A stretch of DNA of 62,269 bases, the filler included, from Jimgerdemannia flammicorona (Eukaryota), in assembly GCA_003990765.1 (NCBI GenBank). It is 3 parts of 3 records of this genome, joined end to end, with 100 filler letters (N's around TTAATTAATTAA, not from the genome) between each part and the next. Parts side by side here need not be neighbours in the genome. Positions count along the whole stretch, not along the records: positions 41,581 to 62,269 come from RBNJ01001610.1; 2 more parts are not named here. One strand, written 5' to 3'. The translations under genes were made by a program, and so were the position numbers. Below the pieces are notes generated by a model. The model saw only the letters and a list, made by a program, of their open reading frames with translations, did not search any database and was not told the DNA's origin. Positions 6,159-60,600 of this stretch are shown here, in pieces (within the stretch, counting starts at the first letter, position 1; each line of letters starts with the position of its first letter).

Positions 6159-7390
6159 TTCTTGGATTATATCTCTTTATTTATTTATATAGTAATATAT
6201 ATTAGAACCAGATCACTGTCTCACAGAATGACATTATCTATCTTATATGCTAGATATAGTATTAGTAACTAGAGAAGGGATATATTATCTTTACTTTTAT
6301 TAGATTTACTATCAGTATATCTTTAATAAGTTATAGTACTATATATTATCAGATTATAGTAAGCTAGTAACTACTTATACTCAGAAAGTAGAGTTGCTGG
6401 TTCTATCTCAAGAGTTGCCTAGAGATATAGACTATATTCTTTAGTCTCTTTATTGTAGTTGAAGTAGTTAGGTATAAATACAGATTGGTATTCATACTAG
6501 TGGTCATTATTCTAGTAGATCTCATAAGTGGTTATGAACTATTGTAAGTTTATCAGTAAAATTGGTAAAGTGATCAGAGTTAGTAGAGATTCTTGGCTAG
6601 AGGTCATATCAGTATTAGAGAAATTATTGTCTTCTGTTTCATTATTGTTAAACTGAATTATATTATAGATATTCTTATAATATATCCAACTTGAGACATT
6701 TATAGGATGTGATCATCTGGATGTGAGAAGGGTCTGTCTGTAGTTTAAGTATACTCAATATATTTGGGATTAAGTTCTTATATCATATCATCAATTTGGC
6801 CATAAATCAGGGTAATAATTATTTCAATAGTAGTAACTCAGATATAGAGAATAAAGATGCTATACTCATAAAAGCATAAAAGAGTTCTTGGTATTTGTGA
6901 GTAATAAGTTTCTAGTATTGAGATATTTCAGTAATGTCTATATTATAGTAATAATTAATCATATCTTCTAGGAGGCAGCTAATCTGATAGTAGCTTGAGA
7001 TTTGTCTGATTTAGTGAACCTTGCTAAGTATGTTTAGGGTATTTCAATAGGCTTTTATGAAATAGAAGAGTACTAGACTATAGATATTTATGAGGGGCAG
7101 GAGTACTATAGCTTAATTAATAATAGTATTTCAAATATCAGTATGAATATAGTTGTAGACTTCAGTAGTTATATCTGAGTATATATTTGAGAGTTATGGT
7201 TGTGATTTCAGTTTGTTATGATTCTTTATTTTAGTATACTATATATTTAGTATATATGTTTTTAGTTCTGATTGATAAGATATATATTATATTCCATGAC
7301 TTTGAGTTGACTCAGCTTTATAATCTTATATATGATTTCTGAATTTATTCTGAGAGTGATATATGATTTCAGTGGCTTAGAGGTTATATA
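6159..7390. repeat. Degenerate dispersed repeat of unknown type, copy 1
   Basis: Colinear with ~17350-18580 (e.g. cactgtctcacagaatg at ~6215 and ~17404). Confidence 0.8.

Positions 7391-7570: not shown

Positions 7571-7628
<58 letters not shown>
7494..7628. repeat. Poly(T) tract, ~135 nt (probable retroposon poly(A) tail on - strand)
   Basis: Seen directly. Confidence 0.85.
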
Positions 7629-17083: not shown

Positions 17084-18580
17084 GGGCTATCTGAACTATA
17101 CTAAATATAAATATAATATATTAGTACTTTGATGAGTCAGAATACAATCATATAGTATAAGTATAAACTGATATATTAAGAGATTAACTGACTGCTGAGT
17201 TAGTATATAGTTATATGTATAGTATAAGACTAATCTAATTATACTAATAATGGCTAAGTTATTATAAGTTTGGATACTATCTGAATACTCTTTGATGAGA
17301 TCACTATTAATAATATCATTTCTGATAAAGTAGTTATCTAGAAAGAGCAGTTCTTAGATTATATCTTTCTGTTTATTTATATAGTAATATATTAAAACTA
17401 GGTCACTGTCTCACAGAATGGCATCATCTATCTCATATACTGAGTATAGTATTAGTAAATAGAGTAGAGATATATTATCTTTACTTTTATTAAATTCACT
17501 ATCAGCATACCTTTGATAGATTATAGTACTATATATTATTAGATTATAGTAAACTAGTAACTACTCATACTCAGGAGGTGAGATTGTTGGTTCTATCTTA
17601 AGGATTATCTGGAAATATATATAGGTTGTATTCTCCAGTCTCTTCATTATTGTTGAAGTAGTTAGATGTGAATATAGATTGGTATTCATACTAGTAGTCA
17701 TTATTCTAGTAGGTCTTATAAGTAGTTATGAACTGTTATAAGTTCATCAGTAAGATTAGCAGGGTGATCAGAGTTGGCAGAGATTCTTGGCTGAAGGTTA
17801 TATCAGTATCAGAGAGATCATTGTCTTCTGCTTCATCATTATCAAACTGGATTATTTATAGATATCCTTTATAGTATATTCAACTTAAGGCATTTGTAGA
17901 ATATAATTATCTGAGTGTGAGAAGGATCTGTCTGTAGTTTGGTTATACTTGATATATTTGTAGTTGAGTTCTTACACTATTTCATCAATTTGACCATAAG
18001 TCAGAGTAGTAACTATTTTAAAGTAGTAACTTAGAGATAGGGAATAAAGATACTATACTTATAAAAGAGTTCTCAGTATTTGCAGGTGATAGTTTCTGAT
18101 ATTGAGATATTTTAGTAATATCTATATCATAGTAGTGTTTAATTATATCTTCTAGGAGATGGCCAATTTAATAGTAGCTTAAGATTTGTCTAATTTGATA
18201 GACCTTACTAAGTATATTTAGAGTATTCTAATGGGCTTTTATAAAATAAAGAAGTACTAGGCTATGGATATTCATGAGAAGCAGAAGTACTGTAACTTGA
18301 TTGATAATTGCATTTTAAATATCAGCATAGATATAGTTATAAACTTCAGTAATCATATCTGAATATATATTTGAGAGTTATGGTTATGGTTTCAGTTTAT
18401 TATAGTTCTTTATTTTGACATATTATATGTTTAATATATATGCTTTCAGTCCTGATTAGTAAGATTCTATTTGTATATATTTTGTATTTTACGTATAACT
18501 TCAAGTTAACTCAGCTTTATGATCTTATATATAATTTCCAAATTTGTTTTGAGAGTGATATATAATTTTGATAGCTTAGA
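17084..18580. repeat. Degenerate dispersed repeat of unknown type, copy 2
   Basis: Colinear with 6159-7390 from ~17350 onward. Confidence 0.75.
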
Positions 18581-18582
18581 TA

Positions 18583-19943
18583 TTGTGAAAACTGAGATCA
18601 CTATCTGCCAATAGTATTATTTACTCTTTAGAATATCTAATTACAAAGTACTTATTTCATCTCTTAAGAAATACTATTTAGAGAAAAAAGTTCTTAAGAA
18701 ACCCTATCATCTAATAAAGATACTATATAGAGATTATATCAAATTAAAAAGAAGGCTAAGAATTATATAACTAAGATATAGGCTCTATAATAGAATAATA
18801 TAGAAAAGATTTACAAACTCTTAGAGATTATCAAGATACATAGAAGAAAAAGTCCTAATATATCAGAATATAATAGAAGCCTTATAGTTATAAAAACTGA
18901 AGTCTAAGTGAAAAGGATCTTATCTTATATAAGATATAAAAGAGATTATATTTTAGCTACAAAAACTCTTAGACATAATTATCTCTATCAATATTTATCA
19001 AAACTAGCTCAAAAAGTATTATAACTAACTAATAAAGTAATACCACAGTCCTCAAGATCACCAGTGCTATACAATGAGCTATTAAAAGACAGTAGTATTC
19101 CACTAAGCTACTAATTATAAAGAAATCCTTTAATAGTATTCAGAGTATAGTATAGATATACTTATTATAAATTTTATATTTCAAGATCTATCAGAACTAG
19201 ACCAAGTTCCAGAAATACTTCAAGTTGAGATAGTTATTAAACTTGAAGCTAGAAATAGAAAAATAAGATTGAATTAAAGAATATCAGCTCTCTTATACTC
19301 AGATCACTATTATTAAGAAAGTATATAAGTTATTTAAGGAGGATAAGCCAGCTCTAGCTCATCTCTAGGAAGTAGTCTCAGAAGACTTCAAATATATTAG
19401 AAGACAATATTGAGAGAATTTAATAATATAAATTATATAGTATAAGAAAATTCAACTAATTGAGACTTGAGAGTTTGAGTAAATAAGATATTTTAGAGAT
19501 AAATCACCTATTTAGAAGAAAGTTGTAATGATTGATCTAAATTAATAATATAAATTAGAGAAATAGACATTTAATTACAGTACTTGAATCTAATTTCCAA
19601 ATATAGTATAGTCTTATAAATAGCAGTTATTTCAGTAATATAGAAATTATTAAAATTCTAGCAAATGTTAAAAGATTTAATACTTACAAAAAGTGATATA
19701 TAACTTAGCTACATATCCTATAGCTAGCAAACTTATATAAATATTCTCAGTATCTAGAGTAAATAAACCTCAGATCAAAATAGTTTAAAGTAAAGAGAAA
19801 GCAAGAAAACTAGTAAGCCTGTGGGCAGATATGCTTTGAACTTACCTACCTCTGTATTCTGAGGACTCTGTAGAGTTAAAGACAATCAAGTTTTTAAGAT
19901 ATAGAAATCTAATTACTTATATAGTTATATGTCTACTATATTA
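18583..19943 (+). mobile_element. Family-B-related Ty3/Gypsy 3' fragment (integrase end, ORF3 relic, LTR)
   Basis: KLKSK*KGSYLI*DIK matches KLEPKWEGPYLVQDIK of the 45666-52354 element. ORF3 relic ~19021-19483. LTR motifs match family B. Confidence 0.8.
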
Positions 19944-20055
19944 TAATATCAGTTTTAATTTCTTTTAACTCAACTGATAAATTTCTTAAGTAAGAATAAA
20001 GCTAATCTATTTCATTAAAGTATTATCTAATAGTATATATATTTTATATATTTAT

Positions 20056-20691
20056 TGTAACGGTGACCCCAGAATGATAACATCAGCACAGGAGACAGCC
20101 TTTCTTTACAAGCCACCAGATCAGAGTACAAGAAGATCATATGGTATATGAGATGAGCAACGATGACCAACTGTGAGTCATTGTGACCACAGTACAAGCA
20201 TCCTGAAGAATATAAAAGAAGGATCAAGAAACTGCAGTAGCAGCAACCAACAAGAACCCCTAATTCCAAAATAGCTCAAAGACTTACCACAAACAAAATG
20301 CCTGCTGCCCGCCAAACCTCAAGGTCAAGGAATTATCAAGGTATCTCGGTCAAGGAAAGGATGTTCCAAGATATCAGAAGAGCCATGAGGACCTACTCAA
20401 GAAGGACTCCTAGCATCAACCTGGGTACTGCAGACTCTTATCACTTTATCCTCTACCGCTGTGAAATGGAAACAAGGATCACCATTGCCACCGAATGCCT
20501 CCAAATGTGGCAGGAGTATGAAATAGGAAACCTCCTCTGCTGGGAGTTCCCACAGGCCAGCCCTCAAGAGCTACAAGATACCACCCCCATGGACCTACGT
20601 GAGGTAAGGACAGCAAAGAAGATCCATCAGATCTTCAGGCATGCACCATGGTCGATCCCCAACTTGGAGTATGTTAGAGTCTCAGACTTCA
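20056..20691 (+). mobile_element. Start of a younger element with an LTR-like TGTAAC terminus, TATA box (20211) and ORF3-family ORF; cut by gap
   Basis: Abrupt compositional switch at TGTAAC (20056), TATAAAA at 20211-20217, ORF from 20298. Confidence 0.5.
20298..20691 (+). CDS. Hypothetical protein, homolog of the retrotransposon accessory ORF3 (partial, runs into gap)
   Basis: Open frame of >130 codons. Motifs QEYEIGNLL and TAKKIHQIFR...LEYVRVSDF align with ORF3 of families A and B. Confidence 0.65.
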
Positions 20692-20791
20692 NNNNNNNNN
20701 NNNNNNNNNNNNNNNNNNNNNNNNNNNNNNNNNNNTTAATTAATTAANNNNNNNNNNNNNNNNNNNNNNNNNNNNNNNNNNNNNNNNNNNN
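20692..20791. other. Assembly spacer (N run with TTAATTAATTAA six-frame stop linker)
   Basis: Seen directly; identical spacer at 41481-41580. Confidence 0.97.
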
Positions 20792-27969: not shown

Positions 27970-29210
27970 TATCTTGAATTCTTAACCTTTTTTGACTCTT
28001 TAGAGTTTTTGGCAAAGTATAAGAATAGGTAAGATTAAAGTATATATTTCTACAGACTTACTAGTTTTCTTACTTCTTTGCTTTTAAACTATTTCAATCT
28101 GAGATTTATTTATTCTAGATATTAAAAATATGGTAAAAGCTTTATAATCTTGAAAACTAGAACTTAAGTAGAAAGGATCTTACCTTGTACAAGATATAAA
28201 AAGAATTAACTTTTGGCTACAAAAACTCTCAGACACAATTATCTCTACTACTATTCATTAAAACTAACTCAAGAAATATTATGACCAATCAGTGAAATAA
28301 TACTATCACTCTCAAAATCACTAGTACTATACAATAAACTATAGAATGACAGTAGTATTCTATCAAACTGCTAATTATGGAAGAAACTTTGATAGTATCC
28401 AGAGTATAGTATAGATATATCTATTATGAATTTTATATTTCAAGGTCTATCAGAACTGAACTAAGTTTCAGAAATACTTTAAGTTAGAGCAGCTACTAAA
28501 CTTGAAGCCAGAAATAGAAAAAGAAGACTAGATCAGAGAGTGTTAGCTCCCCTATACTCAGATTACTACTGCTAAGAGAGTGTATAAGTTATTTAAGAAG
28601 GACAAACTAGCCCTAGTCTATTTCTAAGAAGTAGCCCCAGGAGACTTTGAATATATTAAGAGATAATATTGAAAGAATATAATAGTACAAATTGCACAAT
28701 ATAAGGAGATTCAACTGATCAAGACTTAGAAGTTTAAATAGGATATTTCAGAGATAAATCACCTATTCAGGAGAAAGTTATGATAGTTGATCTGAATTAG
28801 AAATATAAATCAAAGAAATAGACATTTGATTATGATATCTGAATTTAATTCCCAAATATAGTATAGCCTTATAAAATAGTAGTCATATTCATAATGTAGA
28901 AAACATTAACAACTATTAAAGATTTTACAGATATCAAAAAGATTCAATATTTGTAAGAAGTGACTTATAGGAAATATAGTCATAACTTAGCCACTATATA
29001 GCTAGCAAACTTATATAAATATCCCTAGTATCTAGAGTGAATAAACCTCAGATTGAAATAGTTCAAAGTAAAAAAAAACTAGTAAGCCTATAGGTAGATA
29101 CACTCAAACTCACCCACCCCTGTATCTCAAGAACTCTGTGAAGTCAAAGAAGATCAAGTTTTTAAGATACAGAAATCTAACATACATAGTTATATATCCA
29201 CTACATTATA
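27970..29210 (+). mobile_element. Family-B-related fragments: inverted LTR piece (~27970-28125), then + strand integrase end, ORF3 relic (28281-~28741) and LTR
   Basis: Colinear with 18890-19943 and with the reverse complement of 45666-46760. Confidence 0.8.
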
Positions 29211-29475
29211 AAATATATAATGATTTATTATAGAAATTATCTATAAGAATGACAAGATATATATTTATAATTTTAATAATCTTTATTATCAAATTCTCAA
29301 AGAAAATCATAACTTCCTTCTTACTAACTATATGAGATATTAGTAAACTATCTATATTATCTACTGTCATTTCTTCTGATCTACTATAAATTAAAATACC
29401 TGTCCATATTGTAAGGACTGGTGAATAAATCAGACAGGCAGCTTGTGTACAGCCACTGATGTCAACAAAAATGAC

Positions 29476-37893: not shown

Positions 37894-40258
37894 ATGATAC
37901 GCTGCAACCACCCGTTCCTGTCATCATTGTTCCTCCTCCTAATCCTAGCCATTTCAACCGTATGCTTAATCCCGCCAGGAAGGGACTCCGCCGGCATCGC
38001 CTTACTGAACAATACCATATGGGTTTTTGGTGGCGCAGTCTCGGATAACAACGGCGGTTACGACCCCTCCAGCAGCCTTTATTCACTAGATATCTCACAA
38101 TCCTGGTCAACGTCCTCGCCGAATTGGATTGGTCATGACGCCGACATCAATTCCACCATAGTCAGCGGTCGCATCCGGCCAAATATGCAGGTCGGCCCGG
38201 ACGGTACCTCGCTCTGGGTCTACGGCGGCCAGCCGACGAACGCCACGAGCGCCAACCTTTTCCTATGTTATGACACTACCACCCATACATGGTCCACTGT
38301 GGCCTTTGCAGGTGCAATCCGATTGCAAGGGTTCAACGCTGTTAAAAACGCGCGTGGTGTCATCTTCTTTTTTGGTGGAGTGACAGACGAAACTTCACTG
38401 GACGCCTGGGCGCGGAACGACGCCGTCTTCAAGATCGATCCCACTATGAAAACTTGGAGCACTACATCGGTGGCTAACGGGTATCCCGGGCGAGTGATGG
38501 CTACAGCTACCTTAGTAAGGTAAGCTTTTGCTTTGGCTCTTCGTTTCCTTTATTTATCGATTGTTGCTTATCGTTCTTTTCCACGCAGTGACACGAAGGT
38601 TTACATCATTGGTGGCGCTGTGCAGACCCCGACCACGGGGGTACTAGTGTCAATCAATAATGTCACTGTGTATGACACCGTCGCCGGCACTTGGTCCTGG
38701 TCTATGACTACGGGGAGCCAGCTCCCACTCAATCGTTCTGGGCACGCGGCCGAGCTTAGTGAGTATCTGTCGGCAATCTTTTCTGTGCCATTGTCGTCGC
38801 CCTAATTCACATCAAACTGAATAAGACTCTACCGCGACTTAGGTTATGATGGCAAAAGCATTATCATCTTTGGTGGTAACGGCGGCAGTGCAGTTGGCTA
38901 TTTCAGCGATGTATGGACTCTCGATGTCAACCTATTTCAGTGGACATCCCCTACCGTTACGGGTTCCGGTCCGAAGACAGGAATCTATGGCATGAATTGT
39001 AGGAATCTTTTAACTCCTTTGCAATTTTATGTAAAATCTCTCGAATAACATTTGATAACTTGGAGTATGCTGTTCGATTTTAGCCCTATTAATCGGGTAC
39101 CAGATGCTGATAATGTTTGGTACTACTCTTTGTTACTTTATTAAACCGTCTACTGATGTAAAACTTTATCCTTGCATTAATCATTTGTTAATCTATGTTC
39201 TCGCTCCACCTTTAGGCTCTGGTCTGGCAACTTCTACTTACTATAACGACGTTTATGTCCTCGATACCAAGAACTGGGCCTGGACAACCGCTTTCGCCGC
39301 CGTGTCGGTACAAACAGAAGCTCCGACCCAGACAGGAATCGTAGCGCCAACGACAGGTGTGAGTGCGGTCGGTACTAACGGTACCAGCGGTAGTAACGGT
39401 GGCATCGGTGATAAAGGTGGCATCGGTGGCATCGGTGGCATCGGGGGATTGGTGGGCATTATTTGTGGATTGCTCTCTCTCATTGGCATCATCTCATTTA
39501 TTACATGGACCGTCCGGCGCAATAGGCGGGCAGATGCTGCGGTCAAGGCAAATGAAAACCCGGAATTGAGCACGATGTTAAAACCGAACGAGAATGCGGA
39601 GGTTGCAGAGTTGCCGACCAAAGATCCCCCCCCTCCAATTACCCCAAACACAGCGGTCGAGAATGCGGAGGATGCAGAGTTGCCGACCAAAGATCCCCCC
39701 CCTCCAATTACCCCAAACACAGCGGTCGCGCGCGGCAATGTCGTCGATCCACACACCACCGCCACCGCACCCTCCACGGTGAACCCATCGGACCCACACC
39801 TTCCACAATCGAGCATGATACCGTCAGATGCGATCATTTTCCAGACTGGCCCTGCTGTCATTGGAGCGTACTCCGCGCCGCATCAACCATACTACTACCC
39901 GGTACCACACGTCCAACCTAACGCGAACCCTGTCCTCCCCGCCAGCATGTACTACTACCCCGGCACTCCACAGTTTCAACCGGGTTTCTACTACCCCCCG
40001 CCGTTACCGCCGCCGCATGGGACAATCCTTCAGGATAATTCGCACACCCCTGGTGACGGCACCTACGTTGTGGGTGGGCGATACCCTCCGCCAAACTCTT
40101 ATACTCCATCCTTGCACCATGTAGACATCCCGGCCCCACCCATGTACTCTGCACAGTCAGCGGAAGCACCACAGGTTGTTTTGCCCAGACCCCACCAGAG
40201 GATGGAGGAGACCGTTGAGCTACAGGAGGAAAGACCAGCAACGAGAGGGGATGCGTGA
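37894..40258 (+). CDS. Signal peptide + Kelch (galactose-oxidase-like beta-propeller) single-pass membrane protein with Pro/Tyr-rich tail
   Basis: Five in-frame exons (37894-38519, 38589-38758, 38843-38998, 39083-39118, 39216-40258). Repeated VFGG/VYGG/FFGG/IIGG/IFGG...W Kelch motifs. Hydrophobic N-terminus. TM segment LVGIICGLLSLIGIISFITWTV followed by RRNRR. Confidence 0.9.
39590..39727 (+). repeat. 69-bp in-frame tandem duplication (ENAExAELPTKDPPPPITPNTAV x2)
   Basis: Seen directly; one substitution between copies. Confidence 0.92.
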
Positions 40259-41480: not shown

Positions 41481-41580
41481 NNNNNNNNNNNNNNNNNNNN
41501 NNNNNNNNNNNNNNNNNNNNNNNNTTAATTAATTAANNNNNNNNNNNNNNNNNNNNNNNNNNNNNNNNNNNNNNNNNNNN
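41481..41580. other. Assembly spacer with six-frame stop linker
   Basis: Seen directly. Confidence 0.97.

Positions 41581-43149: not shown

Positions 43150-43198
<49 letters not shown>
43150..43198. repeat. Poly(T) tract
   Basis: Seen directly. Confidence 0.85.
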
Positions 43199-43201
<3 letters not shown>

Positions 43202-45479: not shown

Positions 45480-45665
45480 GTATTATATGTATCTTGCTAA
45501 ACTTGTAGATAAGTATCAGATTGAAGATTTGAAGCTTTTGGCTTTACTTGGCTTATTGATATAATAGTATAGATTAGGTATTAATATATCTAAGAGATTG
45601 ATAGTTAATAGTAATATAAACTCAATATCTTCTAAATAATATCATTAGTGATCTAGAGTATATAT
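45480..45665 (-). mobile_element. pol: Continuation of the old chromovirus RNase H interrupted by element B
   Basis: Minus strand IYTLDH**YYLEDIEF..INYQSLRYINT*...Q*AK*SQKL continues the reading that stops at 52355. Confidence 0.75.
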
Positions 45666-46133
45666 TGTAATGTAGTAGACGCTTACTCTTGAAAGTATAT
45701 CGGATTTCTGTATCTTGAAAACTTGACTGTTCTGACTCTCATAGAGTCTCTTGAAGTTGCAGGGAAGGGTGGGTGAGTTCAAAGTGTATCTGTCTGCAGG
45801 CTTACTAGTTCCTTTGCTATCTCTTTGCTTTGAACTATTTTGATCTGAGATTTATTCACTCGAAGATACTGGGTTATTTATACAAGTTTTGCTAGCTATG
45901 AGATGGTTACTGAGTTGTGTGGCTAAGTTATAAGTCATTTAACACTTTGCGAAATGTTTCACCAGTTGCGAAATGCTATACTATATCAGGAAGCTTAATC
46001 TTGCACTTTGCGAAATATTTAGCAAGTTGCGAAATCGAGGACTGTTAACTATGTGGCTATACTACTTTGGAACTGGGTGCGATCAAGTGTCTGTTCCCTA
46101 TTTCCTTCTTCCAAATCTGGCAATACCATCACA
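45666..46133 (-). repeat. Family B 3' LTR
   Basis: Same length as and near-identical to 51887-52354. Confidence 0.95.
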
Positions 46134-46170
46134 ACTTCCTCCTGAATAGATGATCTCATCCCTAAAGCAT

Positions 46171-46632
46171 CTATTCAAACTCCCAAGCTTCAATGGTTTG
46201 TATGGTCTTGTATTGCACAATTTGTTGCATCACTATTTCCCAATGGTATCACCTGACTTGGTTGAAGTCTGAGGGGGTCACTCCTCACAGGTGGGCTAGT
46301 GCTGATTCATCTTCTCAGAATAGCTTGTGGATTCTCTTGGCAATGGTGATCTGAGAATAGGAGAGCTGGCATTCTGCGATCCAATTTTCTTTGGTCATTT
46401 CTGGGTCTTGGTTGAGTACTTGGCCGAGTTTGAAGTACTCTTGGAATTCATTTCAATGCTGATAGGCCTTGAAGTGTGAGATCTGAGAGAGATGAGTCTG
46501 TACGATGCTTTGGATACTGTCATAAGACTCCTCTATGGTTGGGGGCTCAGTGGTGCACCATTGTCTCTCAATGGCTCTTTGGGCAGCACTAGTGATCTTG
46601 AGTGCCATCGCAGTACTTTTGTTACTGGCCAT
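46171..46632 (-). pseudogene. Family B accessory ORF3 (153 codons, internal TGA stops)
   Basis: MASNKSTAMALKITSAAQRAIERQW...QEYFKLGQVL...IAKRIHKLF*EDESALAHL*GVTPSDF...WEFE*. The ATG overlaps the integrase stop. Confidence 0.75.
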
Positions 46633-49600
46633 GATATTTCTTGAGTCAGTTTCGATGAATGGTGGTGGGGATTATTGTGCTTGAGAGTTTTCATAGCCAA
46701 AAGGTGGTACCTTTTATATCTTGCACGAGGTAAGGTCCTTCCCACTTGGGCTCAAGTTTTTGTAACCATGAAGCTTTGACCATATTCTGATACACCAGGA
46801 CTTTGTCTCCTATCTTGATAATCTCCAAGAGTTTGTGGGTCTTTTCTACATTCCTCCATTGTAGTGTCTGCACCTTCGTTATGTAATCCTCAGTCTTCTT
46901 CCTGATTTGGTGTAGTCTCCATATTTCCATGTCCACATGTTTCCATACAGTATCTCCATTGGATGATAAGGTTCCCTGAGAACATTCTTCTCTGAACAGT
47001 ATTTCTTGAGGGGTAAAGTGGGTACTTTGTGATCGGATATCTCAAAGAGCAGATAATGCTATTGGTAGATAGTAATCCCAGTTCTCATAGTTATCGCAGA
47101 TCTTGGCAATAATATTCTTGAGGGTTTTGTTGGTTCTTTCTACTTGGCCATTTCCTTGAGGGTGATATGCTATAGTCCGAATATGCTGGATCTTGTACTT
47201 CTTGTAGAGAACTTCGAAGAACTGGTTCACGAATTCTGTTCCTCTATCTGTAGTTACTTGTGTTGGGGTCTTGAACTGGCAGATAATTTCCTTGTGGAAG
47301 AAATCGGTGATTGACTGTGCATTGACTTCCATAAGGGGTCCCGCTTCTATCCATTTTGTAAAAAGGTCTACAATGATGATGATGTATCAGTTGCCAGTCA
47401 AGGTCAAGGGTAGGGGGCTGATTATATCCATTGCAATGTGGGCGAATAGTACTGGTTCTATGTGTGCTGATCCTGGGGCTTGATTTTGTTGGTCTTGTTT
47501 CTGTTTCTGGCATTTGTTGCAGGTCTTAACAAATTGTCTGATATCTTCCTCCATCCCTGGCCACCATATTGTTCTTCTTGCTTTGTTGTATGTATTTGTT
47601 CCTCCTAGGTGGTCAAGTTTGTGTACTGATTTCATTGCTTGCTCCTTCTTGTGTTCTGGTATGACTAGTAGTTTTCCTTTCTTTAGTATTTCTCCATTGG
47701 TTTCGAATTGTTTCTATGTTCTATTGATAATCATTTGTGTCCATTCTTCCAGATGTTGGGGCATCTTTCACTGTCCCAGGTATGTAATAATTCCATAGTA
47801 GAGCTCCTTATTCATGGTGATTTTGTGGGGGTGGGGTCCTTCGGGGTGTCCATGAGAGGGCATCTGCATTGACATTGGTTCTTCCAGAGTGATGTACGAT
47901 GGTTACATCATAAGCTTACAACTTCATTATCCATCTGGCATAGATTCCTTTGGGTTGTCCAGTTGTCAGTAGCTAGGTGAGAGCTAAGTGGTCCATTTGG
48001 ATGGTGAAGTGTCTTCCAGCCAAGTAGTAGTGGAACTTTCTATGGCCCAGATGACTGCAAGGCATTCCAACTTGTAGGATTCATATTCTTTTTCAGCTCC
48101 TCGGGTTCCGTGGCTGAGGTATGCGATGACATACTCTACTTTATCTTTCTTTTGAGCTAGGACTGCTTCTAGTTCTTGTGTACTTGCATCAGTCTGTAGG
48201 ATGAATTCTTGAGTCCAGTCAGGTCTTCTGAGGATGGGTGCCTGGGTCAGTCTGACCTTGAGTTCATCAAATGCTTTTTGTTATCTGCCAGTCCACTGGA
48301 ACTTGGTGTCCTTCTTGTTAAGTTCATAGATTGGTCCTGCGATGTTGGAGAATCCTCTAATAAATCTGCGATAATAGGAGGCGAGTCCTATGAAGGCTTG
48401 GGCTTCTGTAACAGTGGTGGGTCTTGGGTATGCTGCCACTACTTGTATCTTGAGAGGGTCCGTGTGTGTTCCATCTCAATTGATAATATGACCGAGATAG
48501 GAGATCTCAATTTCTGTGAACTTGCAATTCTTGGATTTGATGTAAAGGCCATGTTGTCTTAGTCTCTCCATTATCTGCTGTATGTGCTGCAGATGTTCCT
48601 CAGGTGTCTTGCTGTAGATGGTTACATCATCGACGTAGACCATCATCTATCTTCCCATGTCATAGCAGAAGATTTTTTTCATCATTTGCTGGAAGCTTGC
48701 TGGTGCGTTGCACATTCCAAATGGCATTCGTAGGTAGATGTAGGTTCCATCTGGAGTGATGAAAGCTGACTTTTCACTTGCCATGTCTGTGAGTCCAATT
48801 TGGTGGAATTCTGAGTATAAGTCCAAGGTGCTGTAGTATTGTGCTTCATCTCCCAGTGTTATGAGGATGTCATTGATGAGGGGCAGTGGTTGGCGATCCT
48901 TCTTGGTAGCCATGTTGAGTTTTCTGTAGTCAACGCAGAGTCTTGGGGCGAATTCTCCAGGCTTACTACCTTTTTTTGGGGCCAGTACAACAGGTGAGGA
49001 CCAGGGGCTGCTTGCTTCTTTAATGATACCCGCTTCTTCCATCTGCTTGATTTCTTCTCTGAGCCATTCTTAGTAGGCTGGCGGGACAGGTCTTGCTTTC
49101 TGATAAATTGGTTTGGTGTCTCCAGTATCTACTTCATGATAGTAGTGTGGGGTCTTTCCTTTAATATCCTTGAAATCTGTAGCAAGGACATCTTCGAATT
49201 CATAGAGTATTTTCCTGAGTTCTTTCTTGAGTGGAAATTCATTTCTGATGGTGTAGCTGTGCTTGCTTGTGTTCTTATGCTCAAGTTCGGTAATCTTGGT
49301 GTTAGCGAATACTTCACTTCCTATGGATCCAAATCCTTTCTTTCCCCTTCTTGTTTCCTCCAGCTTCTTAACTTCTATGATCTTTGGTTGTAGGATCGGA
49401 AAGATCAACATTTGTGCCAATTGGTCCTTCTTCTTGACTGGAAATGGGATTGTAGGATTGTGATTCCTAGCAATGAGTAGAATTTCTCCAGTGTAGTCTG
49501 AATCGATGACTCCTCCTTTGATTGTAATTTCGCTTCTAGCCAGGCTGTTTCTTGTCTTGAGAATCCTGACATGATCCTTTGGAATGGTCATCTCCAATCC

Positions 49601-51790
49601 GGTTGCAAGTAGGGTGGTTGTCTGGGGTTCCAGTATGGTTTCTTCTACTGTAGTGATGTCCATTCCGGCTGCATTTTCTGACTTGTATTCTGGCAAGACT
49701 GTATCAGGGTGGATTCTTTGAATCTTGACCTTGATTTCTTCTTCGTCATCACTGTCCTCCAGGAGAGCTGGTGGTTCATCATCTTCCTCCTTCTCTTCTT
49801 CCCTGATCTGTTTTTTGAGAGCTTTCTGCCTTTTTGCCTGGTGGATCTTCCTGATTCCAATGGTGCACTGGTAGCAATCATTGACGTGCTCCATGCAGTA
49901 CATCTTGATCCCGTGAGGACAGACTCCTTGTGGGGCATAACCTTCTGTGATCTTCTTACACCATTCTTCTTCACTCATCCATCCGACTTTCTTCTTCTTT
50001 GGAGTAGTCACTATATAAGCTTCCTCCTGCTCACTCTCTTCTTCCTCTATGTCAGGCAGGACTCCTTTGTTGACATTGATGGGAATTCATATCTTCTGTC
50101 CCCGGTAGGTGATCTGCATCTTCTGGATGTTGAGGTCGATTACTGCCTTGGCTTTGTGAAGCCATTGATTGCCAATAAGGATGTCATAGTTGGTGGCATT
50201 GGTTACAATTATATCTACTAGGATGGTTGCTCCTCCAATCTTGATGGGAATGTCTCGGATCTTTTCCAGAGGTGTGGCTCTTGTACCATCAGCTGTGACG
50301 AACACCAGCTTAGTTGCCTCTTCTACATCTCAACCTAGGTAGTCTGCTGCCTTTTTGCTGAGGAGACATCCTCCTGCTCCCATATCAATGATGGCCTCAA
50401 AGATTCTATCTTCAATTTAACATGTGGCATATGCAGAGGTTTTGCGATTGTCCTTACTTTCTTCTCCTGAGTCCTCTTGAGCATTATTGGCCTTGGTTAT
50501 CTTCCATCCCTGTTCCTTAGTTGTTTCGGCAAGTCCAAACCTCATTTGCTATCTGAATGTAGGGATTTCTGCAAGCTGGCCAAAGGTTGCATTGACCTTT
50601 TGTTGGCTGAGATCCTTGAAGATATCATACTTGAAGGTCTTGGTTTTGTGAAGCTTCTTCTCTTTTTCTCCTTCACTGACTGGAGTGGTTCCTTGGATGA
50701 TATCTTGAACTGCTTGCTCCAGCTCTGTATCTTGGTCTATCTCTTCGGCTTGGCTTTCTGTAGCAGTTTCCATCTGCCTTTCCACTGGGTTCTTCTTGGG
50801 TCTTCCTGGTGGTCTCTTGTAGGGTTCTTTGTGAGCATTCTTCTTGGTGGTCTGAGCAGAATAGGCCTCCCATTCTTCTTCATCAGAATCTCCAATCTCC
50901 TCAAAGGTAATTGTATTGGCCTGCTCCTTGTTTCGTGTGCCATTGCTTGGTTGAGCCTTGCGCTTGGTTTCACTCATGCATTTATAGGAGTAGTGGCCTT
51001 CTTCTCCACAAGTATAGCAGGTACCTTTCTTCTTGTCTGAGGTGGCGGTGAACTTCTGAACAGGGCAGCAGTCTCTTCCTTGAATTTCCTTTACCACATC
51101 TCCCAGGTGGGCAGTCATTTTGGCAAACCTTTTGGCGAGTTCCTTCATAGGGTCACTGTTCTTTTGCTGCTCTGTAGCTTTTGGCTGAGGTGTGTTTCGA
51201 TTGATCATTATGGTAGGGATCATGCCAGTTGCCTTGGGTGCCTCAATTCTGACTTCTGTGACCCTTTTCATTGTATGGTCTTGTGGATATCTGGCTATCT
51301 AGTATCGCTGAGCATAGGTGACCTTCTGTGGCAGATCCAGAATCACTGGTTATGAGCAGATAGCCATGGCTATTTCTGGATGGACTCCTTTCATGAAGGT
51401 TGCTTCAGCTACTTGATCTCAGATAGCAGCAGCATAATCTGCAAGGATTATCTGATATCGAATTCTGGTATAGAATGTATTTGGATCCTCGCTCATTCCT
51501 TGGCATGTTGTATTGAGCTGATCCTTCAGGGGTTGCTTGATCTCATCTGTATAATATGTATTTCGGAGCCAGGTCTTCTGTGCTATCAGTATAGCATCGG
51601 CATCATTTTCTGCATGGGTTGCAGCTGTGAATGCTACTCTGGCAGAACCTCATAGGCTGAAGGGCATGAGGGCTACTTGCTGTACTGCTGTCAGAGTCCT
51701 TACAGCAGCATACTGCTCGAAATCATCAATGAAGGTGATGATCGATTCATCTGAGGTATATCCATGGAATACTGGTGGTCTCATATCCAT
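46622..51790 (-). pseudogene. Family B gag-pol polyprotein (gag through RT in one frame), disrupted
   Basis: ORF pieces 50549-51271, 50087-50305, 49070-50011 and 48647-49042 share one frame with ATG 51790. Integrase pieces at 46691-47635. Confidence 0.9.
49320..49735 (-). CDS. dut: Trimeric dUTPase domain, family B
   Basis: AAGMDI, TRNSLA, GGVIDSDYTGEI, LAQ, RRGKKGFGSIG. Confidence 0.92.
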
Positions 51791-51886
51791 CTTGTCTGGG
51801 TATTGGGGCTCAGTTTGTATGGTTGTTTATTGTTCAGCTTTAAAGTGAGAGATTCGTCTTGAATTACCAGCTAATGGGCACCAAGT

Positions 51887-52354
51887 TGTAATGTAGTGGA
51901 CGCTTACTCTTGAAAGTACGTTGGATTTCTATATCTTGAAAACTTGACCATTCTGACTCTTGCAGAGTCTCTTGAAGTTGCAGGGGAGGGTGGGTGAGTT
52001 CGAAGTGTATCTGCCTACAGGCTTACTAGTTCTTTTGTTATCTCTTTGCTTTGAACTATTTTGATCTGAGATTTATTCACTCAAAGATACTGGGTTATTT
52101 ATACAAGTTTTGCTAGCTATGAGATGGTTACTAGATTGCGTGGCTTAGTTATGAGTCATTTAACACTTTGCGAAATGTTTCACCAGTTGCGAAATGCTAT
52201 ACTATATCGGGAAGCTCGATCTTGTACTTTGTGAAATATTTAGTAAGTTGCGAAATCGAGGACTGTTAACTATGTGGCTATACTACTTTGGGACTGGGTG
52301 TGATCAAGTGTCTGTTCCCTATTTCCTTCTTCCAAATCTGGCTATACTGTCACA
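51887..52354 (-). repeat. Family B 5' LTR
   Basis: TG...CA termini with adjacent PBS. Confidence 0.95.
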
Positions 52355-55300
52355 ATATATATAATTTTTAGTAGTTTTTTTTTATGAATAACTAACTTTA
52401 GTTTAGCTAATAATAATTTATATTTGTAACTTAAAGATAATAGAGTGGTATTCATTTCTATTATCTTTTAATAAAATTGCGCTCATAGTAAAATTTGAAA
52501 TACATATCAGTAATAACTGTAAATTTTAGATTTAAATTAGGATTTTATAAGACTTGAGTATAGATTAAATAATTCTTGAGTTTTTAGAATACTTATTGAT
52601 AAATGAGATTTCAGATATAAGATACATATATAGTATTCTAAGAATAGTATCTTATATATTAAGTTTATAAGAGACTTAATAATTTTAGAGAAGTTTCAAA
52701 CAAAGTAGTAATAATTAGCTAGACTAAGAAAGAATCTAATTTCTATCAAATTTACTAGTTTAGATCATTTTTAAATTATCTCTATTTTGTATATGTATTT
52801 AAATTTCTTATATAGAGATAATATGATAAGATATTTAACTTTTTTCTTAAAAAATTTATATTTCTTGAGCTTTATATATAATTTATATTTTTATAAAATT
52901 CTAAAATAAATTAGATATATTTGAGATATTCTTCTTTAATTATATTATATATCAGAATACTATCAAAATATATCAATAGAATAATAAAGAGATTATTCTT
53001 AAATATCTTATTTATGAGAATCTGAAATATTTTAGGTATATTAGTGAGATTAAATACTAAGATCAAAATTTGTAAAGTTTAAAAGAAATTATAAAAGTTA
53101 TCTTAGAGATATCTTCTGGCTTGATTTGAATTTAGTAATATCCAGATATAAGGTCTAGTTTAGTGAAGTACTTGATATTTTTAAGAGTATTAAAGATTTG
53201 ATCAATAAGAGATAGCAGATACTAGTTTTTAACTATAAGCTTAGTGAGAGTATAGTAGTCTATATATATTTATAAAGTATTATCCTTCTTCTTAATAAAA
53301 AGAATTAGTAACTTATATATAAGATAACTTACTGTGATAAATGTCTTATCAGATAAGTAGTTCTTCTAATTTCTTCTTAATTACTTTAATCTTGAGAGTT
53401 TATATATAGTATATATATTTCTTAAGTAGTATAGCTTTTAAGAATAGTTTGATTTTATAATCCACTTCTTATATAGATAGTAAACAAGACAGTATATCTG
53501 AAAAAATATTTAGAATTCTTTTAATAGCAACTTAATGCTCCCATTTATTAATAGCTTCTTATTTTATTTCTTAGATCATATAATATATAGTAATAATAAT
53601 ATATATAATTTTCTTAAGTATCTTCTTATATTATATTATATATAAATGAAAATCTGGGTCTTTTTTTATATATTGACTTTATTTTGAAGTAGAGTAACTT
53701 TATTTTTATATTAATTAATATTTGAGTTATACTTTATAAACCAGAGTTTTTCTAAGATCAGATAATAATCTTTTAGCAATATGACTTTAAAGTCAACTCA
53801 TTCTCAATATATATTTCTGAATTTTAATAGATAGTTTTATAATAATTGACTTAATCAAATATAGTATACTATTAGTAATAACTACTCTATTAATTTTGGA
53901 TAAAGGTTTAATAAAAATCTTGAAGTTTTCAATTAAGTTCTATATAGTTGATAAGATATACTTTCAAACTCTTTTTGATCTTACTTAATTAAAGATAGTT
54001 TTTAAACTTCTGTAATCTTAAGCTAACTTACTTTTTCTAAAGTTATTTATATAACTCAGTCTCCTTCTTTGATAGTATAGTCTTAATTCTTCTAATTAAT
54101 AGGTAAGACTTAAACTTATCTACAGTAGTTTGTATCAATGATACTAATACTAATATCTAAATAATAATTAATATTAAGTCCTAATCTAGTTATATATAAT
54201 TCTTAGATAGTAGACTTTTGAATATTGAAATATAATTCTAATAGATATTAGAGCTCTTTCTCAGACATAAATAATGACTTATTTGACTGAATATTAGTAA
54301 ATTCTAATGGTTTTTTCTAATTAATATTAAGAGATCTGAGTTATCAGATATATATAGCTTCTTGATTATAAGTTCTGATTAATAGATATATCTTTAAATA
54401 GTATTATAACTGATCTGATTAGATTGCTTATCTTCTTAGAATATATAGTTTTAATATATTCTATCTAATAGTATAAAAAACATACTTCCAACTTTTTAGC
54501 TATTTTTTCTCTTTTATAGTAAACTTATTATTTTTCTTATTTATAGAGTTTTTAATCCATTAGAGCTAATTTTACTACTCTAAGTTAATTCTTATAATAG
54601 TTTTGGAAATAATTCTTCTAATAGTATTTTAGTTTAAAATAGTAATTATAAATAATTATATCAAATCTATTAGTAATTCATATGACTTCTTTAATAGATC
54701 TTAGTTCTTCTAGTTCAATCTTAACTTGTGTATTCTCTTTTAAGTCTTGAATATAGTAGTCTATCTTTTTATTCTCTATGATATCAGATAGTTCTAAAAG
54801 AATTAACAGAAATTATATATTATAGCTTTGTATAGACTTAAGTTATTTGATATTTGCTAGCCTATCTCTAACAGTTTAGTAGTATTAGTAGACTTGAACT
54901 ACTTATATAAAATCTTCTTGAATATTTTTTAATCTTTAACTTTTGTTCTTCAGTATAAGAAGATAGTTATAATATAATTATATTATCAAAATAACTATAT
55001 TTTCTTAAAGAAGTATAGTAGAAAACTAAACTTGGAAAGTTTAGATATCAGTAGATAATTCTCCTCAGTGATCATTAAAGATATCTAGCTTAAGTAGCTT
55101 GAAACTAATAGATATAACTATAGATTAAGTTGCTGTAAAATATAATTTCTTTATTTTCTGATAGTCTAGTTAGACTTGTAGATTTTATATTTAGAATATT
55201 ATAGTTATTAGCATTTCTTTTATACTTAATTATAGAGTTTCTGGATCTAGGTCTCCTAGGGTAGAGGAGTCTGATTAATTGACTCATTCTCTCTAGTTTA

Positions 55301-56857: not shown

Positions 56858-57304
56858 TCAATGATCACTCCATTCCAGGGGCTCCTCTTCTTCCTTGGGA
56901 AATAGGATTTCAACTTGGTGAATAATGCTGAGGTAGGTAGATAGTGTCATCCTCTGGAGGTCATTTAGAGAGAACTGGGCCTAAATTAAGGCAGAATGAT
57001 TTCATTTGTAGATTGTGTATAGTCTGTCTGCAGCAGTAGTATTCCTTCTATTCAGGTCAGTGGTGTTACAGACATAGGCTAGGTCTGGGAGGGGAAGATT
57101 CTGCAATTGTTCTCTAATTACATAGTATGCCTGCAGCTGGTGGACCTGGAGTAGCCTCTTGGCCAAAGTGAGGTTCTCTTGATGAACTCAGATTTTCTGA
57201 AGATATGTTCCATTGAGTTTCTGAAACTGAGGCAGGGGAACTGGTAGGGCTTGGAGGGAACTGAGGATAAGGGTTTGGAGACAGTTGTCAATTCTCTAGT
57301 TTAT
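56858..57304 (-). pseudogene. Family A accessory ORF3 relic
   Basis: (ATA, probably from ATG) N*RIDNCLQ...QLQAYYVIREQL...AADRLYTIYK*NHSALI*AQFSLNDLQRM...; overlaps the integrase end. Confidence 0.65.
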
Positions 57305-60189
57305 GGTATAAGAAGAGATATATCTTGAGGTAATTGATATGTACTGGTGTCTTCAGGGTTCATCCATCCATACTTCTTAAATAGATGCTGGTTCCTTTAA
57401 TATTATGTACAAGATAAGGTCCTTCCCATTTGGGCTCCAATTTGGTGGCAAAGTTTGTTTCAATCATACTTCTCCAGACTAGTACTTGATCTCCAATCTT
57501 GATCTCCTGATCTTTCCATTTCTGATTATAATACTTCTTTTGTCTTTCTTGAGCTTTGATAATCTGACCTCTGGCTTGATTACATAACTGTTCTGCCTTC
57601 TTGAGAAGGTCTCTGAATTTCTCATGGTCAGCAGTTCTGGTTTTCTTGGCAAATATAGTTTTGAATGGCTTTTATTTGATGGAGACAGCAGGGGTGTTCC
57701 AAATTTCCCATAGGATCTCAGATAAGCAGAGGTCCCAATTGGTGGAGTTGACTCAGGCAAGTCCTTTCTTGATGGTCTGGTTCATTCTCTCTGTCATGCC
57801 ATTCGTCTGAGGGTAGTATGATGTAGTCCTTTTGAGGTGGATCTTGTGAATTTGGGCATAACTTGTGATTATATTATTGATGAATTCTGTGCCTCAGTCA
57901 GAGATAAGTTCTTCTGGGGGTCTATATCTGAGTGTAAGTCCATGGAAGAGGCCTATAATGGTTAAGGCATCTGCAATTTCCATTGGAAAAGCCTTTGGCC
58001 ACTTGGTCAGATGTTCTACAAATATGAGGATATATTTGTTTCTTCTTGGTATAACTGGTAGAGGTCCAATTACATCTACTCTCTATCTCTGAAGAATGTT
58101 GTCTGGTGGTATGATTGGTTGCAATGGTGCTAGATAGTTCTTCTTTCCTTAGTACTTCTGACAGATATCACATCTCTTAAGTATATCCCAGACTTGTGTT
58201 CTGAGGTTGGGCCAATGTTGGTGTGTTGTTCACAACTTCTCTTCTATGTTTGCTTGTCCTTGGTGGGCTTTCTGATATTCTTTTTGAATGAGATCTTCTT
58301 GTGCCTTGATGGTCTGAGAAGCTTCCTTTAGGGTGTAGTTCCTCAAGACACCCTTCTTCTGGTTCATTGGGGCTGGCAGGAAAGTATATCAACATTGTTG
58401 TAGGCTTTCCCTGCTTTGTGAATAATGGTGATTTTGTAATCCTGTAGGATAAGGATCCAGCAGGCTAGAATTCCAGTAGATTCCTTATAGTTGAATAACC
58501 ATTTGAGGGCTGCATAGTCTGTGATCAGGATGAACCTTTTTCAATAAGGTAGTGTTTGAACAGGGTGACTGCCTATATGACTGCAAGGTATTCTAGTTTG
58601 TTGCTACCATAGTTTGTCTACTGTTGATTGGTAGCTCTGCTTGTATAAGCTATCACATGGTGCTGTTGATCAGGTCCTTCTTGGGCCAGAACTTCCCTGA
58701 GACTATCTTTAGAAGCATCTGTATATAAGATGAATAGCTTCTGTATATTGGGGCGCACAAGGATTGGTGCTGTAGTTATGTGGTTCTTGAGTTCTCTGAA
58801 GGTTTTTTCTTGTGTTTCTGTCCATTTAAATGGTACTTCTTTCTTGAGAAGGATCTGGATTGGGGCAGCGATTTGGGCAAAGTCTTTGATAAACCTTCTG
58901 TAGTAGGATACTAGCATCAGGAATGATAGTGTTTCCTTTTGGGTTTTTGGATACTGGCCAATTGTTGATCTTCTTGGTCTTCTTTAGGTCTGTATGGGTT
59001 CTTTCTTTTGAAACTATGAATCCAAGGAATTTGAGTTTCTGTTTCCCAAAGTAGCATTTCATTGCATTCAGTCTCAAGTGATTCTTGTGGGTGAGTTTGA
59101 ATAATTCCTCTAGGTAGTACAGGTGTTCTTCAAAATTTGCTGAATAGATGTTGGAATCATTCATGTATACAATCAGGCAATGGTGGATCAAGGGGGCATA
59201 GACTGAATTCATCATCCTCTGAAAGGTGGGGGGTGCATTGCAGAGTCCAATGGGATTTCAGAGGTATTCAAACAGTTTTTCTAGAGTAAGGAAGGCTGTC
59301 TTTTGAATGTCCTTGGGGTCCATGGGGATCTTATGGAATCCTGTGAAGAGATCCATACTGCTGAAATATCTGGCATCTTGTAACTGATCCAAGAGGTCAT
59401 CAATTCTGGGCAGAGGATAGGCATCCTTTTTGGTGACTAAATTGAGTTTCCTGTAATCTACACAGAGTCTCCATCCTCCTTTCTTTGGTACAATAAGTAT
59501 AGGGCTGCCCCAGGGGCTAGTAGAGGGTCGGATGACCCCATTGTCTAAGAGTTCTTGAATGTGCTCCTTTTTGAATATTTTCAGGTGATGGGGTATTCTA
59601 TAGGGTTTCTGTTGGATAGGTGTTGCATTTCCTATATTTATTCTGTGGTGATATGATGGATTGTATGGCAGGTTGCCATAATTGATAGTGAAGATATCTT
59701 GATATTTATTGAGAAGTTCTACTAGTTGTTGCTGTTGTTGAGGTGTCAATTCTTCTCCAATGTTAGTAGAAGGCTTCACTGTCTCCTGGGTCGCAGAGGG
59801 GCCTTTCCTTTCTTCTGGGACCTTTTGCCATTTCCTGATAGGTTTAGTTCATAAACTTCTCTATGGGTTCAGTTGAGAAAAGGCACCAGATGTCCTATGA
59901 TGGTTCCTTTTGGCAAGATGATGGTTTCTGAACTTTGGTTGGTCACTCGGGAGTGTACTGGATTCATCTTGTCAGGGAATGTGTATCCCTCTATGTCCAG
60001 GTGTAGGATGTCTTCCTTGGGTTCAAAGAAAAGGTTCCTGAGATTGGGTGGTATAAAGATTTTGAAGGTAGTTTGTTCTCCAGGCTCCAGGATAAGATTC
60101 TTATACAGTCTGACTAGTTGCCAGTACACTTGCTGGGGAACATTCCTCTTGAGGTAGTTGACTTGAAGGAGATGTACTTCCTTCCTGTC

Positions 60190-60600
60190 TGAACTTCCAA
60201 ATCCCTTGGTTTGTCTTGTTACTTCAGTTAGTTCAGAGAATTCTTATAACTGTGGGGTCTTGACCTTTATGAAGACTGCTTGGGCAATCTTCTGTCCTCT
60301 AATGATTTGGTGCCATTCTACACTACTATTGTATAGAATAACCTTGATTCCACCAGTATATCATAGGTCAATCATTCCTCCTTCCACAGTTATTCCTTGT
60401 CTGGCAAGTCTGGACCTTGAGGTTAGTTGGATGTAAGATCCTTGGGGTGGCTGCATGGCTAATCTGGTTCTGATCATAAAGGTTCTTCCAGGTTTGATAG
60501 ATTCATCCTTCAGACTGTGGAGATCATACCCTACATCTTCTGAGTGGGCTTTGGTCAGGGGTTTGGCCTTGGGATGTAGCAGGGCATACTGGGCAATATT
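60190..60600 (-). pseudogene. dut: dUTPase domain, family A copy 2 (disrupted)
   Basis: VGYDL, SRSRLA, GGMIDL*YTGGI, IAQ, KGFGSS. Confidence 0.88.

Follow-up and report, generated by a model that had tools for sequence, protein, structure and literature searches.

A conserved non-env open reading frame between integrase and the 3' LTR of divergent dUTPase-bearing Ty3/gypsy retrotransposons in Jimgerdemannia flammicorona

Retrotransposons and open reading frames at the locus

We analyzed a 62,269-base stretch of the genome of Jimgerdemannia flammicorona (assembly GCA_003990765.1), hereafter the window, and found that it holds at least two deeply divergent lineages of dUTPase-bearing, chromodomain-less Ty3/gypsy retrotransposons, families A and B. 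Both keep a third open reading frame (ORF3) between the integrase gene and the polypurine tract and 3' long terminal repeat (LTR). A homolog, type C, lies elsewhere in the window. The initial annotation of this DNA had proposed that ORF3 is a selected, non-env accessory gene shared by divergent dUTPase elements, and this proposal is now backed by intact relatives, intermediate sequences, a confident predicted fold, and a low ratio of nonsynonymous to synonymous substitution (dN/dS). We read ORF3 as a retrotransposon-carried gene for a small soluble protein (~150–170 amino acids in families A and B) of an undescribed family, and give this reading a probability of roughly 60%; a regulator or adaptor is the favored role, at less than even odds. 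The window consists of three contigs, artificially joined by spacers of the form N44-TTAATTAATTAA-N44 at 20692-20791 and 41481-41580, and features reaching these positions therefore end at contig ends.

Family B is represented by a decayed but complete element on the minus strand (52355..45665). Its 5' LTR (51886..52355) is followed by a primer-binding site starting TGG, while its 470-bp 3' LTR (45665..46134), with TG...CA ends and 92.8% identity to the 5' copy, is directly preceded by the polypurine tract AGGAGGAAGT (46135..46144). The internal region (46622..51885, minus strand) contains stops and a frame change, and Pfam searches recover reverse transcriptase (RVT_1, 8e-29), dUTPase (8e-24), integrase (Integrase_H2C2, 1.5e-16; rve, 2e-11), protease (RVP_2, 8e-9), and a gag zinc knuckle (zf-CCHC, 8e-4). 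The TG...CA LTRs, primer-binding site, polypurine tract, and gag(CCHC)-protease-dUTPase-reverse transcriptase-RNase H-integrase order are those of a Ty3/gypsy element. No Pfam match to a Chromo domain was found in the family B pol (E ≤ 0.01) or the family A pol (E ≤ 0.001). Instead, the integrase terminates a few residues past its GPY module, at the start of ORF3.

The family B ORF3 (46632..46171, minus strand) spans 153 codons plus a stop and ends 36 nt upstream of the 3' LTR. It is decayed, with in-frame stops at codons 60, 106, 116, and 128, in agreement with the earlier description of a ~150-codon frame that is read only through premature stops. Over its whole length, it shares 82% identity with an intact 153-residue public protein, P0005. 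Two relics of the same ORF, both noted previously, occur on the plus strand of the window: relic 1 at 19021..19479 (27% GC, 15 stops, tblastn E 5e-32), after which an LTR relic reaches ~19950, and relic 2 at 28281..28738 (30% GC, 15 stops, tblastn E 6e-31). When the relic regions (18950-19955 and 28210-29230) were each compared with the better B copy (45665-46700), C>T and G>A changes dominated, at 168 of 320 and 152 of 297 substitutions. The C>T changes were in excess at CpA (55/92 and 48/75), a pattern like that of repeat-induced point mutation (RIP). In Gigaspora, RIP is reported not to have been detected (PMC8647823).

The family A element extends past the window end, and its domain order can be seen from the protease onward. 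Its pol (57288..62269, minus strand) is spread over three frames, with Pfam matches to protease, dUTPase (5e-25), reverse transcriptase, RNase H, and integrase. Amino-acid identity between families A and B is 35% for reverse transcriptase, 40% for RNase H, 33% for integrase, 32% for dUTPase, and 26% for protease. The family A ORF3 (57304..56858, minus strand) is interrupted at codons 3, 39, 101, and 108 and lacks a start codon; an ATA stands where its intact relatives of 171–172 residues begin with M[NT]QRID, as would be expected from the ATG that had been proposed at this position. A blastn comparison of the ORF3 regions of A and B detects no similar nucleotide sequence. The claim of conservation at the protein level without DNA similarity therefore holds, in elements whose pol domains are 26–40% identical.

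The two families also share the way in which ORF3 begins. In family B, the ATG (46632..46630) and the pol stop TAA (46624..46622) overlap within 46622..46632 on the minus strand. The distance from the ATG to the pol stop is 8 nt in B, 20 nt in relic 2, and 17 nt in A, with ORF3 in the +1 frame in each case, which agrees with the overlap and register first described for A and B. This arrangement raises the question of whether +1 frameshifting near the pol stop could append ORF3 to the C-terminus of integrase, so that no separate protein is made. The +1 register shared by A, B, and relic 2 would suit such a fusion, as would the frame upstream of the ATG, which is open for 13–18 codons in the window copies and 41 codons in the relative P0021. 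However, the place of the ATG relative to the first predicted helix is kept in A, B, and relic 2, the relatives are called as stand-alone ORFs starting with M, and type C has no pol in the 240–375 nt examined upstream of it. We consider a frameshift fusion quite improbable.

Translation of ORF3 from its own ATG is, by contrast, very probable. All 30 aligned members have their initial M at about the same small distance ahead of helix 1, although this is weak evidence for an own start because gene callers always begin at M. A subgenomic RNA, produced by splicing or from an internal promoter, has about an even chance of being the source of the protein, whereas re-initiation after pol termination is conceivable but somewhat doubtful. 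Candidate splice signals near the ORF3 ATG, picked out by eye, were dropped, as the CTCAAG among them is explained by conserved integrase Leu-Lys codons.

The type C ORF (20298-20690, plus strand) remains open for 131 codons and is cut by a contig end, not by a stop. Its full-length relatives are longer, at 247–342 residues, with a long acidic C-terminal extension, and several variants exist at 80–88% identity. The homology proposed for this ORF stood (96 bits with a family profile); the 240–375 nt examined upstream contain no integrase remnant. The upstream region (20208..20297, plus strand) carries a TATA-like GAATATAAAAG whose distance to the ATG is ~80 nt. The window copy shares the leader ...CTTACCACAAACAAA-ATG with two metagenome loci, L001 and L002, even though the type C proteins of these loci are only 61% and 45% identical. 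Sequence of normal composition begins at 20058 (TGTAACGG...), after ~110 nt of AT-rich DNA behind the LTR of the B relic. In L002, the type C stop runs directly into GGAGGGAGGA and TGTAA..., which look like a polypurine tract and the first bases of an LTR. It therefore appears that type C occupies the final gene position ahead of an LTR, yet with a promoter-like leader of its own.

These loci came from a metagenome scan with type C, in which 250 stretches matched and three were confirmed (L001, L002, and L003); L001 and L002 are too short to hold a whole element. The third, L003, proved spurious: it is a 42-kb bacterial contig, with ORFs that look aminotransferase- and UbiD-like by eye, that the type C profile matched by chance over 41 residues. 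As a separate observation, a 33-nt stretch (GTCAGGCGGAAC...CAGAACA...) occurs in L002 on either side of the type C ORF, at 170-202 and 1481-1513, with 27 matching positions (z 4.8 vs. shuffles). It is too short to represent paired LTRs; a cis element common to both places is one possibility.

Relatives of ORF3 and unity of the family

All three types have uninterrupted relatives in public sequence sets. The family B frame, read through its stops, matched 10 uninterrupted proteins (E 5e-78 to 5e-34, 65–83% identity), one of them complete at 153 residues and annotated as a “hypothetical protein.” The family A frame matched five, including the complete P0015 (171 residues) and P0016 (172 residues) at 66–67% identity, and the type C frame matched three. 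These relatives derive from JGI/IMG, ENA, and read-derived sets, on contigs of 0.5–12 kb.

Direct comparison of the window ORFs by BLASTP linked B to C (4e-4), but B–A and C–A were not significant. Because direct comparisons of A, B, and C were too weak alone, intermediates were sought. A mixed A+B+C profile searched against 1.84 billion representative sequences recovered 33 proteins at E ≤ 1e-3, most of which are stand-alone ORFs of 125–230 residues with an M start; at the 50% identity level, at least 33 subfamilies are present in public metagenomes. When all 51 collected proteins were compared with one another by BLASTP, they formed a single component at E < 1e-5. Several members bridge the window types, namely P0029 (A 4.9e-8, B 4.4e-7), P0042 (A 1e-8, B 2e-6), P0030 (A 3.9e-7, B 7.7e-8, C 5e-5), and P0047 (A 3.3e-6, B 8e-11), and the direct links within this set were 6.7e-4 for B–A and 6.5e-5 for B–C.

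Profile hidden Markov models (HMMs) gave the same picture. A model built from 23 proteins outside A, B, and C assigned 79 bits to B, 68 to A, and 52 to C. The full family model, run on the six-frame translation of the window, recovered B (132 bits), A (107), C (96), and both relics (76 and 71). Taken on sequence, A, B, and C are very likely homologous.

The opposite view, that these are chance ORFs in decayed DNA with coincidental motifs, could draw on the stops in the window copies and on the lack of a significant direct A–B BLASTP match. It is contradicted by the uninterrupted relatives, the BLASTP bridges, the HMM scores of 132, 107, and 96 bits, the confident fold, and the low dN/dS described below, and we count it as refuted.

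Two weaker matches of the family HMM, at 18347..18144 (E 1.6e-6) and 7160..6960 (E 0.011), both on the minus strand, were not counted as copies, given that they lie in AT-rich DNA and that stops abound in their translations; each may be either an additional relic or a compositional artifact. Among viral contigs, 55 stretches matched one family alignment, and none of these was a relative.

Sequence features and selection

Residue numbers below follow the 153-residue B form, and column statistics come from 30 aligned members. The family signature consists of a helix [EQ][FLW]xx[YH][YF]x[ILM]G, an L-x-[RK]-rich cap, and [IAT]AxR[IVL][YHF]x[LIV]F[RK]xxPxAL; it is present in the window B, A, and C copies as well as in both relics, so that the two motifs first recognized in three ORFs extend across the whole family. 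Conserved columns are mostly hydrophobic, the others being E62, Y66, [YF]67, G70, A98, R100, [YH]102, F105, [KR]106, P109, A111, and L112. Conservation is concentrated in core positions together with E62, R100, [KR]106, and P109. Conserved charged surface candidates are found only on or before the fourth predicted helix (H4), namely the [RK]-rich cap, present in most members, R100, and [KR]106. The last 25 residues are net negative in 26 of the 30 members, and aromatic residues (W, F, or Y) are often interspersed with the D and E there.

ORF3 does not resemble env. A Kyte-Doolittle 19-residue window of ≥1.6 was reached in only 1 of 51 family proteins, within its variable tail, and the absence of a membrane segment sustains the earlier view that ORF3 is not env; this search for Env hallmarks was by hydropathy across the 51 proteins, with no dedicated signal-peptide program used. 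Nor does ORF3 correspond to a named domain, again as proposed. The three window ORFs had no Pfam match at E ≤ 10, and the 30 members had no shared Pfam-A match at E ≤ 1, with 16 families each matched by one member (best E 0.008).

Among three type C loci (the window and two metagenome contigs), dN/dS was 0.14, 0.21, and 0.18, values that are rough because dS is saturated at 1.8–3.3. The expectation of dN/dS below 1 was thus borne out for type C, the one type whose intact copies could be compared at the DNA level. Selection on A and B is argued from uninterrupted divergent copies, uneven conservation, and the model confidence gained with sequence diversity.

The selection on type C bears on whether ORF3 might be a host gene family that retroelements captured repeatedly, or that was domesticated in the case of type C, and that serves the host with no role in transposition. 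Strong purifying selection, the TATA-like leader, and the lack of pol within 240–375 nt upstream of type C would all fit this idea, and genomic context does not cover most of the 33 subfamilies. Set against it, A and B share the place and frame relation of ORF3 despite pol identities of only 26–40%, a stretch like a polypurine tract and then TG come after type C in L002, window type C ends a contig as repeats do, and several type C variants exist at 80–88% identity. These points make a host gene a poor candidate.

Predicted structure and dimerization

The AlphaFold2 model of the B form depended strongly on alignment diversity. With 10 close sequences, the mean predicted local distance difference test score (pLDDT) was 54, which is not usable, whereas a diverse alignment of 30 sequences gave an all-helical model of a soluble domain, with pLDDT 94.3 and a predicted template modeling score of 0.85. 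Seven helices are modeled, spanning residues 2-23, 40-75, 81-88, 92-105, 109-114, 120-125, and 128-152. In this model, the first motif (QEYFKLG) would form the end of the long second helix (H2), and the second motif (IAKRIHKLF) would form H4.

No convincing structural relative was recovered. Foldseek searches gave a best E of 1.2 against the Protein Data Bank (PDB), with none at E ≤ 1e-3, and a best E of 0.72 against BFVD, where DUF3102 phage proteins reached probabilities of 0.6–0.69 and template modeling (TM) scores of 0.38–0.43. VIA-align yielded a best Z of 4.7 across 48,161 chains, which is not convincing, and 3.5 on 768 Foldseek chains, while the family profile searched against PDB sequences gave a best E of 0.19. 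In the ESM Atlas, P0005 led to unrelated prokaryotic clusters only, and P0047 to a poor model (pLDDT 0.42) with TM scores ≤0.40. The absence of a structural match stands out because chance alone generally lifts the Z of helical models well above these values. Judged from the model, the fold appears to be new, although an absent match is no proof of a new fold.

The protein is predicted to pair with itself. ESMFold2, given two copies of the B form and no alignment, returned an ipSAE of 0.46 (0.45, 0.46, and 0.48 across runs) vs. 0.00 for the best of three controls, with contact agreement of at least 65% and partner pLDDT of at least 64. In benchmarks on microbial proteins, 21 of 30 solved as one-chain pairs and 0 of 23 solved as single chains attained the mark used to call a dimer; for eukaryotes, the corresponding counts were 17 of 29 and 0 of 30. 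The modeled interface combines antiparallel pairing of H2 (residues 40-76) with residues 84-94 and includes the conserved N50, I51, E62, Y66, and L69. From these models, we therefore consider it probable that the protein forms a symmetric dimer, pairing via its long QEYFKLG-bearing helix.

Possible roles of ORF3

How might such a protein serve the element? Tentatively, and largely by analogy, we suggest that ORF3 acts as a dimer that regulates, or serves as an adaptor in, expression of the element itself. It would be made separately, from an ATG that precedes the pol stop by 8–20 nt and is in the +1 frame, and would dimerize through H2. Basic residues at or before H4 (the [RK]-rich cap, R100, and [KR]106) could then hold the DNA or RNA of the element, while the acidic, aromatic-containing C-terminal tail might recruit host machinery, much as an LTR transactivator or RNA-export factor would. 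This last step reflects our assumption that the tail is akin to acidic aromatic segments that recruit host machinery.

Complex retroviruses encode regulators near the 3' LTR, such as the foamy virus Tas, which has an internal promoter, and HIV Rev. ORF3 may be compared with these in its position before the 3' LTR, its small size, its predicted oligomerization, and the binding patch and effector tail proposed here, and the TATA-like leader of type C recalls the internal promoter of Tas. However, neither protein is known to be homologous to ORF3. Extended to its full form, the analogy would describe fungal “complex” Ty3/gypsy elements whose dimeric regulator, of a new fold, binds its own LTR DNA or genomic RNA through H4, recruits host transcription or export machinery through its acidic aromatic tail, and is expressed from a subgenomic or internally promoted RNA, with type C as a trans-acting reduced, non-autonomous, or domesticated unit. 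As a whole, this scheme is speculative and unlikely to be correct in every part.

Alternatively, ORF3 could be a particle or replication factor, an acidic dimer that binds nucleocapsid, integrase, or histones and aids assembly, reverse transcription, or integration-site selection, replacing the chromodomain. The acidity of the family, with its aromatic-containing acidic tails, and the model-supported dimer are in line with this role, as is the lack of a chromodomain match in the A and B pol; a start coupled to the pol stop would also tie the amount of ORF3 to that of Pol. By contrast, no likeness to capsid (Gag) or integrase-binding folds appeared among the matches listed in the Foldseek and VIA-align searches, and type C apparently has its own promoter-like leader. 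We therefore regard a particle factor as rather unlikely.

A further possibility is that ORF3 counters host control by RNA interference, DNA methylation, or selective autophagy. Six relatives (P0034, P0035, P0040, P0045, P0041, and P0037) end in [DE]x[FYW][LV][DE][ILV], which we take to resemble Atg8-interacting or export-type short motifs, and ORF3 evolves fast compared with pol, at 15–25% vs. 26–40% identity. However, the A and B types of the window lack this terminus, its residues lie inside the last helix of the model rather than in a free tail, and known suppressors show no homology to ORF3 in Pfam, BFVD, and PDB-sequence searches. Counter-defense is accordingly an improbable function.

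Several observations weigh against our overall reading of ORF3. The first concern homology. Comparison of the window types by hhalign, on shallow profiles, was marginal for B vs. C (E 0.0012, probability 19.5%) and B vs. A (E 0.0027, probability 11%), and not significant for A vs. C (E 0.22). The profile-level significance envisaged in the initial annotation was thus approached for two pairs and missed for the third, although the alignments cover the same columns as its motifs. Since direct profile comparison is only marginal, the homology of A, B, and C rests on the intermediates, and because the 23 outside proteins were chosen with the mixed A+B+C profile, some circularity enters the bridging argument. 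Still, such a choice would not easily yield E-values of 1e-7 to 1e-8 against two families at once.

The others concern context, selection, activity, and function. Genomic context covers A and B of the window and C in part, which limits the label “retrotransposon gene” to these types, and type C has no integrase remnant in the 240–375 nt upstream of it. The dS values of type C are saturated. All ORF3 copies in the window are broken and give no sign of activity in this genome, and the sequencing runs listed for ORF3 words included no RNA and a single soil-metagenome DNA run, with 0.06 of the words. General nucleic-acid binding is not favored given that the family is acidic overall, with an isoelectric point below 7 in 25 of 30 members, and no DNA- or RNA-binding fold was recognized in the fold searches. 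A lead at most came from the ParB-type helix-turn-helix proteins SopB (3mkw, 3mky) and VirB (3vwb), which align to model residues 60-153 over 83–90 residues with Z 3.3–3.5; with a root-mean-square deviation of ~5 Å and no sequence match, these Z values are within noise for helical proteins.

Comparison with described elements places ORF3 in a known kind of gene. The CERV protein of the Caenorhabditis elegans Ty3/gypsy element Cer1 is described as a functional accessory protein for genomic RNA export, and it resembles ORF3 in being an extra, non-env LTR-retrotransposon protein of no known family that would serve the element's own expression (PMC10309623). CERV differs in its spliced mRNA, its need for phosphorylation, its animal host, and its demonstrated function, a comparison with ORF3 made by description only (PMC10309623). 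The Juno, Vesta, and TelKA elements of rotifers share the protease-dUTPase-reverse transcriptase order, the lack of a chromodomain, and varied post-pol ORF3s, many of which are not env (PMC5408684). As summarized in that source, the ORF3s of bdelloid rotifers encode a GDSL esterase, a DEDDy exonuclease, a paramyxovirus-like fusion protein, or short membrane or coiled-coil proteins (PMC5408684), whereas the present family has neither a Pfam match nor a membrane segment.

Among fungi, dUTPase is known in Gypsy elements, in some of them between protease and reverse transcriptase (PMC2864245). A figure legend of the same study (Novikova et al. 2010) lists an “add. ORF” of unknown function, undiscussed in the accompanying text as available, and likeness to ORF3 can be judged by that legend only (PMC2864245). 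Apart from this fungal ORF, known by its legend only, no description of the present protein family was found in the literature, as far as the sources were accessible. An accessory ORF3 of an LTR retroelement is therefore a known kind of gene, and the protein family it encodes here appears to be new.

The same place in lineages with 26–40% pol identity, the occurrence of at least 33 subfamilies, the confident fold, and the lack of any match to a known family or fold together make ORF3 a well-defined and testable candidate for a new step in the retroelement life cycle of transposon-rich, large-genome fungi. To our knowledge, extra genes are rare in LTR retrotransposons, and a role is established for only a few, such as env and the CERV of Cer1. 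In practice, a profile of this family could be used in annotating such genomes, to give a name to one class of “hypothetical proteins” and to assign some of the “unclassified repeats.”

Other features of the window

Much of the window is AT-rich, at 22–31% GC in many 2-kb windows, and contains dense, nested remains of retroelements. Contig 2 carries three tandem kinase fragments with PK_Tyr_Ser-Thr and Pkinase matches (29476-32158, minus strand) and two ORFs with Kelch repeats (37822-40258, plus strand). In Rhizophagus irregularis, kinase and Kelch-like genes are reported in high copy number (PMC8647823). Such gene families and a background of ~25% GC resemble those of arbuscular mycorrhizal fungi, which fits the likeness to a Glomeromycota protein family suggested in the initial annotation.

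Two regions have the appearance of non-LTR elements. The first resembles a long interspersed nuclear element (~12000-17085, plus strand), with an RVT_1 match at ~14971-15604, an A-rich tail at 17046-17085, and a very strong GC skew of +0.4 to +0.5. The second lies within a block of 52% GC at positions 1-6000, where GC skew runs from -0.42 to -0.49; it includes a non-LTR reverse transcriptase (1442-2659, minus strand; RVT_1 5e-17), a weak endonuclease match at 2959-3498, and, on the strand opposite to the reverse transcriptase, a proline-rich low-complexity reading. Finally, T-rich tracts of 137 nt (7494-7630) and 51 nt (43150-43200) both occur within AT-rich DNA.

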